A stretch of DNA of 64,000 nucleotides from a virus. The notes beneath the pieces are model-generated. The model did not search any database. It saw only the letters and a program-made list of their open reading frames with translations, and was not told where the DNA came from. Made by a program: the position numbers and the translations under genes. This document shows positions 45,719 through 49,060 of this stretch, piece after piece (the stretch's first letter is position 1; every line of letters starts with the position of its first letter). The stretch spans positions 30,811 through 94,810 of the IMG/VR virus record IMGVR_UViG_3300037882_002640. One strand, 5' to 3'.

Positions 45719-45955
45719 TTACCGCGTTTTGGTCGAATAGTTCGGCGGCAGTGTATAGTCTATCAAATCTACGAAGAGAGTCCCGTAAGACTCTTGTACA
45801 AGTCTTAGCACTTCCGCATCCTCAATGCGGTCTAAATATTTTTCTTCTAAAAGTATAGAAGCCTCTTCTGGCTCCCCTAATGGTTTCTCTTCCTCATCAG
45901 GGGAGATTCTTTGGACTATTACTTTTACTTTTACGACTGCGTTGTGTTCGGTCAT
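45719..45955 (-). CDS. Hypothetical protein
   Basis: 78-aa ATG ORF. Confidence 0.6.
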   Translation of the reverse strand: MTEHNAVVKVKVIVQRISPDEEEKPLGEPEEASILLEEKYLDRIEDAEVLRLVQESYGTLFVDLIDYTLPPNYSTKTR

Positions 45956-45986: not shown

Positions 45987-46030
45987 TACTGTTTCGATCC
46001 TCAATTAGATCATCATCAGGTTGAACAGTA
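45987..46030 (-). ncRNA. Hammerhead-like RNA (type III arrangement) lacking a normal stem I
   Basis: TACTG TT CAAC CTGATGA T GATC TAATTGAG GATC GAAA CAGTA. Confidence 0.55.
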
Positions 46031-47613: not shown

Positions 47614-47692
47614 TGACCCAAACAGGACTCGAACCTGCATACTCCAATTACTCAGTTAACGACCGCTTAGAAGGCGGTTGAGATATTGGGCC
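47614..47692 (-). tRNA. Non-canonical tRNA-Arg(TCT)-like RNA with no standard D-arm and a long variable region
   Basis: GGCCCAA TATCTCA ACCGC CTTCTAA GCGGT CGTTAACTGAGTAATTGGAGTAT GCAGG TTCGAGT CCTGT TTGGGTC A. Confidence 0.65.
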
Positions 47693-48109
47693 AATTTCCT
47701 GCGTCGTAGGCTGTTGCTATGCAGGGTGAGTATGTGTTTCTACCAATAGATTTCTTCGGCGGCTAATCACCTGTGTATCTATCATACTCTTTGTGCTTTG
47801 GGATGTTATCCCTTTTCGAGAGCACCAGTCTCTATCCCAACCACTTATCGTATGGTCCTAAGACATACTGGGGTTGAGAACATTAAGCAGTTTATCGGGA
47901 TGCTTAGCCTAATTCTTAATCTTGATTGCTCAAACCTTCACATTAAGATTATTTGTGAAGTACTAGTACCTTTCGGGTAATTCATTTGTTAGTAATCATC
48001 TAACAAATATACCATAAACTACTCACCTTATCTCACGACTTAGGCTTCCTTGTGACAATTACATAACAATCCTTATGGCGAGTGTTATAACTAAAGTACT
48101 GTTGTTCCC

Positions 48110-48376
48110 TTAGGTTGTCATTTTGAGAATCTCGATAACATAACTTAATTCTACATCTTTGGTGATGTAGTTTGTTGTGCTAAAGGTTTCCTTCAGTGCG
48201 GACGCTATATTCCCCCTGTTCAGGTTGAAATATATCCACTCATGTTTTGTAGAAACAGGTTTGAACCCAACTTCGAGTATTGCTACTACTTGATGGGTTG
48301 TTGTTTCCTTACATGCTTGAAGGAATCCTAACTCTTGTTTATACGTACCTATGACGTATAGTTCTACAGTCTTCAT
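48110..48376 (-). CDS. Hypothetical protein
   Basis: Likely start MKTVELY in an ATGA overlap with the upstream stop. Confidence 0.55.
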   Translation of the reverse strand: MKTVELYVIGTYKQELGFLQACKETTTHQVVAILEVGFKPVSTKHEWIYFNLNRGNIASALKETFSTTNYITKDVELSYVIEILKMTT

Positions 48377-48567
48377 ATCTGAATCTTGTAGAATAAAGAG
48401 TCGAGGCTCTCTGTGCAGTATTGATCCCACACCAATAGTCCTTCCTGTAGAAGAAAGCACTCTGATTTATAACCTTGAGATTTAGCCCAAGGTGTCGGTA
48501 CCAATACCACAACATCTTTTGTTACGCCCAGTTTGATTCTGGCGTAACGTTGTAATGTTGTTAACAT
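48373..48567 (-). CDS. Small hypothetical protein whose ATG lies in stem I of a hammerhead ribozyme
   Basis: 64-aa ORF, ATGA-coupled to the downstream gene. Confidence 0.6.
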   Translation of the reverse strand: MLTTLQRYARIKLGVTKDVVVLVPTPWAKSQGYKSECFLLQEGLLVWDQYCTESLDSLFYKIQI

Positions 48568-48630
48568 GACTTATAAATAAGTTTCGGCACTTATATTTAT
48601 ACTCCTGTGCCATCATCAGATGTTTGGAGT
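48563..48630 (-). ncRNA. Type I hammerhead ribozyme
   Basis: AACAT CTGATGA T GGCAC loop GTGCC GAAA CTTAT TT ATAAG TC^ATGTT; loop II GGAGT can pair with upstream ACTCC. Confidence 0.85.
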
Positions 48631-48923
48631 TGGTAAGTACAAACTTACCTTTCACCTGTGAATTTTAAATAAACACCCAAGCATTGCAACCCAGAGGTTT
48701 CAGTGCATTATACTATGATTTCTCATAGTCAAGTCTTGCTTGGGTGTTCTATTCGCTGTTACTCAAGATGAGACATACTCGCCAGAATAGTTCACTGGCT
48801 TTTATCAGACCATCCTTGGTGGATTCTGACTTTCTTGTTATTTCACTTACAACCCCGAAAGGTAGAAATATACAAACGCCAGATTTCACCGCAGAAATCT
48901 GGGAAATGGCAGCAAATAGTGTT

Positions 48924-48995
48924 ACCACGATATAATTTCGCCTGTACCTCATCAGGTGGTTTTATCATTTATTTATACTCCCTGAATAGTACAGG
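48924..48995 (-). ncRNA. Minimal type I hammerhead ribozyme
   Basis: ACCAC CTGATGA GGTACAGGC GAAA TTATA TC^GTGGT; GTACAGG has a perfect upstream complement CCTGTAC at 48989-48995. Confidence 0.7.
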
Positions 48996-49060
48996 TTAGG
49001 AGTTAAAGAATTACTGCTATCATAGTTGAGAAAGCAGTAATTCTTTGCATATGGAAGAGT

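Follow-up and report, generated by a model that had tools for sequence, protein, structure and literature searches.

A type I hammerhead ribozyme predicted to cut directly before the start codon of a small gene in a crAss-like phage

Hammerhead ribozymes flanking genes in phages were reported by Perreault et al. (2011; PMC3088659). The role of bacterial and phage hammerheads is an open question, the usual guess being the processing of polycistronic messages (PMC6765202). Here we describe a hammerhead located directly upstream of a small gene in a virus genome of 94,810 bp (IMG/VR record IMGVR_UViG_3300037882_002640). The window, by which we mean the whole stretch of 64,000 nucleotides that was analysed, corresponds to positions 30811-94810 of that record; all coordinates below are window positions, and the ribozyme is read on the minus strand, 5' to 3'. 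The element occupies positions 48630-48563 (-) and its predicted cut abuts an AUG.

The type I hammerheads of phages and prophages that carry a pseudoknot between stem I and loop II (PMC3088659) share with the window site the core, the topology and the intergenic position on the coding strand upstream of a gene. The window site differs from them by its 16-nt loop II, by the 5'-flank location of the candidate partner of this loop, by its A-U stems and by a leader of 0 nt. As a hammerhead that sets the 5' end of an mRNA, its nearest precedent is HHphage of the haloviruses HF1/HF2, which lies 13 nt before a start codon and whose cut is no more than 3 nt away from the mapped 5' end of the transcript (PMC3088659). 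HHphage is likewise viral and directly upstream of a gene, there the first gene of an early polycistronic unit, but it has a core insertion near C3, is salt-dependent and leaves a 13-nt leader, whereas the window site combines a canonical core with a cut abutting the AUG. According to Lopez-Galiano et al. (2026; PMC13725137), fungal and plant RNA viruses carry type I hammerheads in their 5' untranslated regions, whose self-cleavage is needed for translation initiation. These elements are eukaryotic, act in a cap-independent context and lie within the untranslated regions of RNA genomes, in contrast to the window site with its cut at the AUG. Engineered hammerhead-made leaderless mRNAs and RiboJ insulators follow the same principle, cleavage removing the whole leader and leaving a 5'-OH message, and are synthetic. 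The RiboJ insulator leaves a hairpin and a ribosome-binding site. We know of no natural counterpart of the engineered hammerhead-made leaderless mRNAs. The unusual traits of the window site are its candidate 5'-flank pseudoknot, its large loop II, its A-U stems and, above all, the coincidence of the cut with the start codon.

Architecture of the ribozyme and the class to which it belongs

We recovered on the minus strand all the parts described in the first-pass annotation of this DNA (a full hammerhead core, an extra U and three stems). Read from the sequence, they compose a complete type I hammerhead whose stem I is open. Its features are as follows, with the evidence in brackets (R1 is the covariance model presented below).

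48630-48626 (-): 5' flank ACUCC, candidate pseudoknot strand for GGAGU of loop II (sequence; helix in minimum free energy (MFE) folds)
48625 (-): single A between the 5' flank and stem I (sequence)
48624-48620 (-): 5' strand of stem I, AACAU, positions 2.5-2.1 (sequence, descriptor, R1)
48619-48613 (-): catalytic core C3-A9, CUGAUGA (sequence)
48612 (-): extra U between A9 and G10.1 (sequence)
48611-48607 with 48590-48586 (-): stem II, GGCAC/GUGCC, 5 bp (sequence, descriptor, R1)
48606-48591 (-): loop II, 16 nt, AGGAGUAUAAAUAUAA (sequence)
48585-48583 (-): G12-A13-A14, GAA (sequence)
48582-48578 with 48573-48569 (-): stem III hairpin, ACUUA-UUUA-UAAGU, 5 bp (sequence, descriptor, R1)
48568/48567 (-): C17 and the predicted scissile bond 5' of A48567 (hammerhead numbering on the sequence)
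48567-48563 (-): 3' strand of stem I, AUGUU, i.e., the start codon and the first two bases of codon 2 (sequence, descriptor)

The strand C3-U4-G5-A6-N7-G8-A9 is present as CUGAUGA, GAA is followed by the A48582-U48569 pair (A15.1-U16.1), and C48568 precedes the cut. All three stems have 5 bp, the 1.1-2.1 pair being A1.1-U2.1 and the 10.1-11.1 pair G10.1-C11.1; the preferred G10.1-C11.1, C15.2-G16.2 and GUC are all found. Hammerhead numbering places the predicted cut, GUC^AUG, between 48568 and 48567, in agreement with the first-pass annotation. Position 48567 is, as had also been claimed, the A of the ATG of the open reading frame (ORF) 48373-48567, and the AUG lies within the 3' strand of stem I. 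The element looks like a genuine type I hammerhead ribozyme, and we consider it very likely that it would cleave itself in vitro.

Viral contigs of IMG/VR were searched with the pattern CTGATGATGG..CCGAAAC..GTC, which leaves stem I and the inner parts of stems II and III unconstrained. We obtained at least 118 loci (L011-L128), and all three stems could be formed at 107 sites (104 loci) among the matches listed, indicating that the type I hammerhead with an extra U after A9 is an abundant phage class. The extra U, the G10.1-C11.1 and C15.2-G16.2 pairs and GUC are shared by the window site and more than 100 viral examples. In 66 of 75 non-redundant members among the matches listed, an ORF starts on the same strand at most 120 nt from the cut, and the window ribozyme likewise lies directly upstream of a same-strand ORF. 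It is itself an ordinary member of this common class, from which it departs by the size of loop II (16 nt versus 4-9 nt) and by stems I and III made nearly exclusively of A-U pairs, unlike those of almost all other members. An extra nucleotide after A9 is also described for the (+) hammerhead of chrysanthemum chlorotic mottle viroid (CChMVd), which stays active (De la Pena and Flores, 2001, as quoted in PMC1636495). The extra position is the same, between A9 and G10.1, but the residue is A10 and the source a viroid, whereas the window site has a U.

A chance origin of the motif is unlikely. When the whole 94.8-kb genome was scanned with a type I descriptor, we obtained the window site and one marginal intragenic match (41700-41589, with the variant core CUGAGGA, a 3-bp stem III and a length of ~110 nt); requiring the exact CUGAUGA core left the window site as the sole match in the genome. 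The loosest setting yielded 0.01 matches per genome in 400 Markov-1 random genomes, none of which contained a match once the stems were required to reach 4/4/4 or 5/5/5 bp, and a rough analytic estimate of the chance rate is ~1e-4 per genome.

We built a covariance model, R1, from 23 non-redundant viral members drawn from the matches listed (alignment A2). The window site matched R1 over its full length with 43.3 bits (E ~2e-12), a score that is partly obtained by construction because the retrieval pattern was derived from the core of the window site itself. The next-best matches in the window scored 17.9 and 15 bits, and the best one in 50 kb of Cellulophaga phage phi14:2, the nearest relative in culture, used as a crAss-like control, 14.5 bits. 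Covariation was observed at the level of the class only: in the A2 alignment 96.7% of cells were paired, against 64% after shuffling, in a set that had been filtered for pairing; the unbiased figure is that of the 107 three-stem sites.

The small gene and its distance from the cut

Three features follow the cut.

48373-48567 (-): gene for a protein of 64 amino acids (aa) with a small alpha/beta fold (homologues, AlphaFold2, upstream TAA)
48110-48376 (-): second ORF, 88 aa, with an ATGA overlap with the first; candidate gene (ORF list)
48510-48560 (-): very stable stem-loop within the first 58 nt of the ORF, 48510-48567 (MFE -17.7 kcal/mol)

The 64-aa ORF is a real, conserved gene, as judged from homology, a shared motif and its AlphaFold2 model. 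A word-indexed protein search recovered one 98%-identical copy only. An exhaustive phmmer search of 1.8 billion representatives recovered P0004 (146 aa), P0005 (86 aa) and P0006 (67 aa), with 37-48% identity. The family alignment contains 13 invariant columns and a common C-terminus, and its conserved N-terminal motif, [LM][ST]xx[QE][RKQ]xA, corresponds to residues 2-9 of the 64-aa protein. Modelled by AlphaFold2 from a five-sequence input, the protein has a mean predicted local distance difference test score (pLDDT) of 93, with a helix at residues 4-13 within a compact alpha/beta fold. Codon usage gave an ambiguous result, the ORF ranking at the 6th percentile of true genes and being outscored by 35% of spurious ORFs, and was set aside because it is superseded by homology and fold prediction. 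We found no function match for the protein in Pfam, PHROGs or the protein Atlas, and nothing convincing for its structure with Foldseek against the PDB (E>=2) or with VIA-align (Z<=3.9).

An in-frame TAA at 48573-48571 lies two codons upstream of ATG 48567. Initiation at codon 20 or 22, where the next starts in this frame are found, would remove the conserved N-terminus. AUG 48567 is thus the only start that keeps the conserved protein and is, with high probability, where its translation begins. The earlier call of a gene with its ATG at 48567 is therefore upheld by the homologues, the N-terminal motif, the pLDDT of 93 and the TAA closing the frame. The two-gene unit proposed at the same time is half verified: the first gene stands and is overlapped through ATGA by the second ORF, but the latter matches itself alone in the databases, as a 116-aa call from an upstream GTG.

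The exact register of cut and start codon sets this locus apart. In the 75 non-redundant members among the matches listed, the first plausible ORF start was mostly 20-45 nt after the cut, with a mode at ~25-35 nt, and the few apparent cases of 0-7 nt were explained by a Shine-Dalgarno site and an ATG further downstream. A targeted scan of viral contigs for hammerheads of the form CAU...GUC^AUG returned 38 unique elements. The long ORFs beginning at that AUG have an in-frame Shine-Dalgarno site and ATG 24-51 nt downstream, with one ambiguous case (L167), and we therefore rejected the idea of a recurring "leaderless hammerhead" design. A short leader is thus what remains, as a rule, after cleavage by a phage type I hammerhead, and the zero-length leader predicted here is singular.

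The stem-loop at the beginning of the ORF has a z of -5.4, and none of 200 shuffles was as stable. It is closed by a helix between CAACAUU (48560-48554) and GAUGUUG (48516-48510) and includes the 10-bp hairpin GUUACGCCAG/CUGGGCGUAAC. Alternative pairings around the start codon are possible since AACAU and AUGUU each occur twice, in stem I and in this closing helix. A post-cleavage 5' hairpin AUGUU/AACAU was also considered; it showed modest enrichment in the class and was not significant at the window site, and was not retained.

Possible fates of the cleaved message

The explanation that we favour overall, with somewhat better than even confidence, is that the active hammerhead defines the 5' end of the mRNA and gives a leaderless message. 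Stem I would be completed only after transcription of AUGUU, the first five nucleotides of the downstream gene, and the folded RNA would then cut itself between C48568 and A48567. The ribozyme (~66 nt) and the RNA upstream would depart with a 2',3'-cyclic phosphate, and the downstream RNA would start as 5'-HO-AUG, that is, with the start of the 64-aa protein followed by the second small ORF. Cleavage would in this way detach the structured non-coding RNA from the two genes that follow it, and the leaderless mRNA would be produced in a host whose ribosomes do not use Shine-Dalgarno pairing.

Such a host is likely. The large terminase of the phage shares 33% identity with its counterpart in Cellulophaga phage phi14:2, the other matches being crAss-like phages of Flavobacterium and Bacteroides, and a Shine-Dalgarno core is present upstream of 3 of 59 long genes, the leaders being A/U-rich and G-poor. 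The phage is crAss-like, and its host is probably a member of the Bacteroidota in which initiation is Shine-Dalgarno-independent. Whether the cleaved form would also be the translated form is a separate matter, on which we lean slightly to the negative. Translation of a leaderless product is consistent with this host type, with the fact that a conserved gene must be expressed and, by analogy, with the hammerheads of HF1/HF2 and of eukaryotic RNA viruses. A stronger version is a natural kinetic switch, in which self-cleavage would turn a structured, leadered transcript into a 5'-OH message beginning at AUG, the translation of which would be set by ribozyme activity in the Shine-Dalgarno-independent Bacteroidota host. 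Ribozyme folding and ribosome loading would be mutually exclusive in this switch because the start codon is one strand of stem I. As a specific proposal it appears unlikely to us.

Several observations weigh against the ribozyme-made leaderless message. The first concerns the Rfam hammerhead models (clan CL00010, e.g., Hammerhead_II, RF02276): no family reached its gathering score on the window, nor E<=10 on 401 nt around the site, so that the hammerhead-model search suggested with the first-pass annotation failed with Rfam and succeeded only with the purpose-built R1. A control hammerhead from another viral contig (L003), a GC-rich textbook type I element with the same U-GGCAC/GUGCC stem II, was also missed, obtaining 13 bits solely against the permuted type II model Hammerhead_II. 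The miss thus reflects a gap in model coverage and is not evidence against the ribozyme. The Rfam models appear more generally to miss the extra-U class.

Fold stability is the second point. The nested hammerhead fold has an energy of -8.5 kcal/mol versus -13.8 for the MFE fold, the pseudoknot being uncounted, and stems I and III consist almost exclusively of A-U pairs. The MFE fold itself draws on the ACUCC/GGAGU helix, so that the hammerhead becomes competitive once the pseudoknot is counted. This pairing between ACUCC (48630-48626) and GGAGU (48605-48601) comprises 5 Watson-Crick pairs (-5.4 kcal/mol), the ACUCC strand lying 1 nt from stem I. A match of this quality was reached in 8% of loop shuffles, in 2% if adjacency was required and in 25% if either flank was counted, making the 5'-flank alternative weakly significant, and no 3'-flank partner for loop II exists at the window site. 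Among the matches listed, 40 of 75 members can pair loop II over 4 bp or more with the 3' flank, at ~1 nt past stem I, versus ~12 expected from shuffles; for the 5' flank the count was 5 of 75 versus ~7 expected, i.e., no enrichment. The loop II pseudoknot that had been claimed for this site therefore survives as a complementarity, and is not typical of the class. We regard it as plausible and not more, because the window site would pair the 5' flank whereas the class pairs the 3' flank. The unusual 16-nt loop II would fit pairing with the upstream strand, which may need a long 3' return segment.

The remaining points against the leaderless message concern its fate and its conservation. The 0-nt leader makes the window site an outlier of its class. 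The stable stem-loop begins at +8 of the cleaved RNA, leaving the 7 nt AUGUUAA free at the 5' end. Leaderless mRNAs in Escherichia coli reportedly need a 5' phosphate, and Giliberti and co-workers are said to have found in 2012 that an engineered, hammerhead-made 5'-OH leaderless mRNA binds E. coli ribosomes poorly and is poorly translated. No RtcB or RNA ligase was found in the phage, and the AAA_33 kinase family gave weak P-loop matches only. Finally, relatives with which the register could be compared were not recovered by blastn against GenBank phages, by searches of viral contigs with the 64-aa, 88-aa and 175-aa proteins, by searches of metagenome, viral and genome contigs with the 64-aa protein and alignment A3, or by tblastn of the 64-aa protein and two homologues against phages; GroEL-based loci reached 36-40% identity only.

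Many of these same facts would be expected if the ribozyme was active and its cleavage served as an off-switch or insulator, the protein being made only from uncleaved RNA. The weak A-U stems III and I would then melt to give an A/U-rich leader of the kind usual in this phage, the loading ribosome and the folding ribozyme would compete for AUGUU, and the cleaved 5'-OH leaderless RNA with its stem-loop at +8 would be translationally dead. Stem I indeed contains the AUG, and stem III takes up positions -1 to -14; both stems are nearly all A-U, unlike those of almost all class members, and the upstream regions of phage genes are A/U-rich and G-poor, resembling the 3' half of the ribozyme. The reported requirement of E. 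coli for a 5' phosphate, the stable structure from +8 and the lack of a detected RtcB, RNA ligase or convincing kinase in the phage point in the same direction. However, natural hammerheads with tertiary contacts usually outpace ribosome loading, leaving little uncleaved RNA, and it is difficult to see why a gene silenced nearly all the time should be conserved. We judge this alternative rather unlikely, while ranking it first among the rivals of the leaderless message.

The real client of the ribozyme could also be the RNA upstream, cleavage serving to trim a longer transcript, or the structured non-coding RNA at 48650-48930, at its 3' end. The trimmed RNA would keep the ribozyme and the cyclic phosphate, and the abutting AUG would be incidental to genome compaction. 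In favour of this, ~490 nt of non-coding, highly structured sequence lie upstream, a type I hammerhead remains on the upstream fragment, and a weak second hammerhead-like core is present 360 nt upstream. This core is, however, at noise level (17.9 bits versus 14.5 in the control genome), class members typically sit just before ORFs, and an incidental placement does not account for the use of the start codon itself in stem I; we hold this reading to be improbable. That the element arose by chance, or is the inactive remnant of a decayed hammerhead, is the least credible of all, for although Rfam gives no match, the stems are A-U-rich, the nested fold is marginally stable and rare chance motifs are expected to surface among the very many windows screened, the expectation is ~1e-4 per genome with none of 400 simulated genomes matching, E is ~2e-12 against the independent class model, every invariant core position, the preferred flanking pairs and the class-specific extra U are intact, and the position and strand relative to the gene are typical of the class.

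Non-coding surroundings and significance of the locus

The ribozyme closes a stretch of ~490 nt in which no convincing ORF is present. The region abounds, on the minus strand, in tRNAs and in structured RNAs that are as yet unexplained. One feature directly adjoins it.

48632-48649 (-): hairpin GGUAAGU-UUGU-ACUUACC directly 5' of the ribozyme, containing TAAGTTTG (sequence, fold)

TAAGTTTG in this hairpin resembles TAnnTTTG, the -7 promoter element of Bacteroidota. Its use as such would place the start of transcription 2-4 nt before the pseudoknot strand. Enrichment of TAnnTTTG as a promoter element was not supported genome-wide (121 found versus ~96 expected). We also rejected TATAAATA / GGAGTATAAATA of loop II as a general promoter motif, the 12-mer occurring only twice in the genome.

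The two copies of the 12-mer GGAGTATAAATA in the 94.8-kb genome are located at 48594-48605 (-), in loop II, and at 48970-48981 (-), the latter preceding by ~9 nt the stretch 48961-48923 that is matched as a second hammerhead-like core. The twin copies may correspond to a duplication of the ribozyme module or to a shared binding site. The second core, at 48923-48961 (-) with 48990-48996 (-), has a stem I ACCAC/GUGGU, CUGAUGA, GAAA and AUC, together with a 1-bp stem II closing GUACAGG and a 2-bp stem III; the complement CCUGUAC is found ~29 nt further upstream. Its R1 score of 17.9 bits is barely over the 14.5 bits of the control, and the MFE fold prefers the CCUGUAC/GUACAGG helix. Another hammerhead-like core, at 45987-46030 (-), reads CUGAUGA-U-GAUC...GAUC-GAAAC; it shares the extra U and forms a stem III of 6 bp. 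It has only 4 nt (CAAC) in place of stem I, lies ~30 nt before gene 45719-45955 and scores 15 bits with R1, which is noise level.

Other structured sequences were observed on the same strand. About 40 nt upstream of the ribozyme, at 48671-48748 (-), a long-range helix ACACCCAAGCA / UGCUUGGGUGU encloses the hairpin ACUAUGA-GAAA-UCAUAGU, with UUUAUUU after it, and may represent either an atypical terminator or a small structured RNA. At 47700-48110 (-) there are ~400 nt of structured-looking sequence with no ORF, and at 47614-47692 (-) a tRNA-like element (34.5 bits with the Rfam tRNA model, no ARAGORN call) whose D arm is nearly absent and whose variable region measures 20 nt. In Cellulophaga phage phi14:2 (L182, 1300-4600), all ORF annotations were removed in 2020 from ~3 kb near the left end, a stretch that may be a non-coding RNA region comparable to that of the window; in the first 50 kb of that phage no hammerhead was detected with R1.

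The value of the locus lies in the nucleotide-exact register of the cut and the start codon, which is directly testable. It is a natural test case for a possible control of message translation by phage ribozymes, and it bears on whether Shine-Dalgarno-independent ribosomes accept a 5'-OH leaderless message. The kinetic switch, if true, would be the first defined biological role of a phage hammerhead in translation control.

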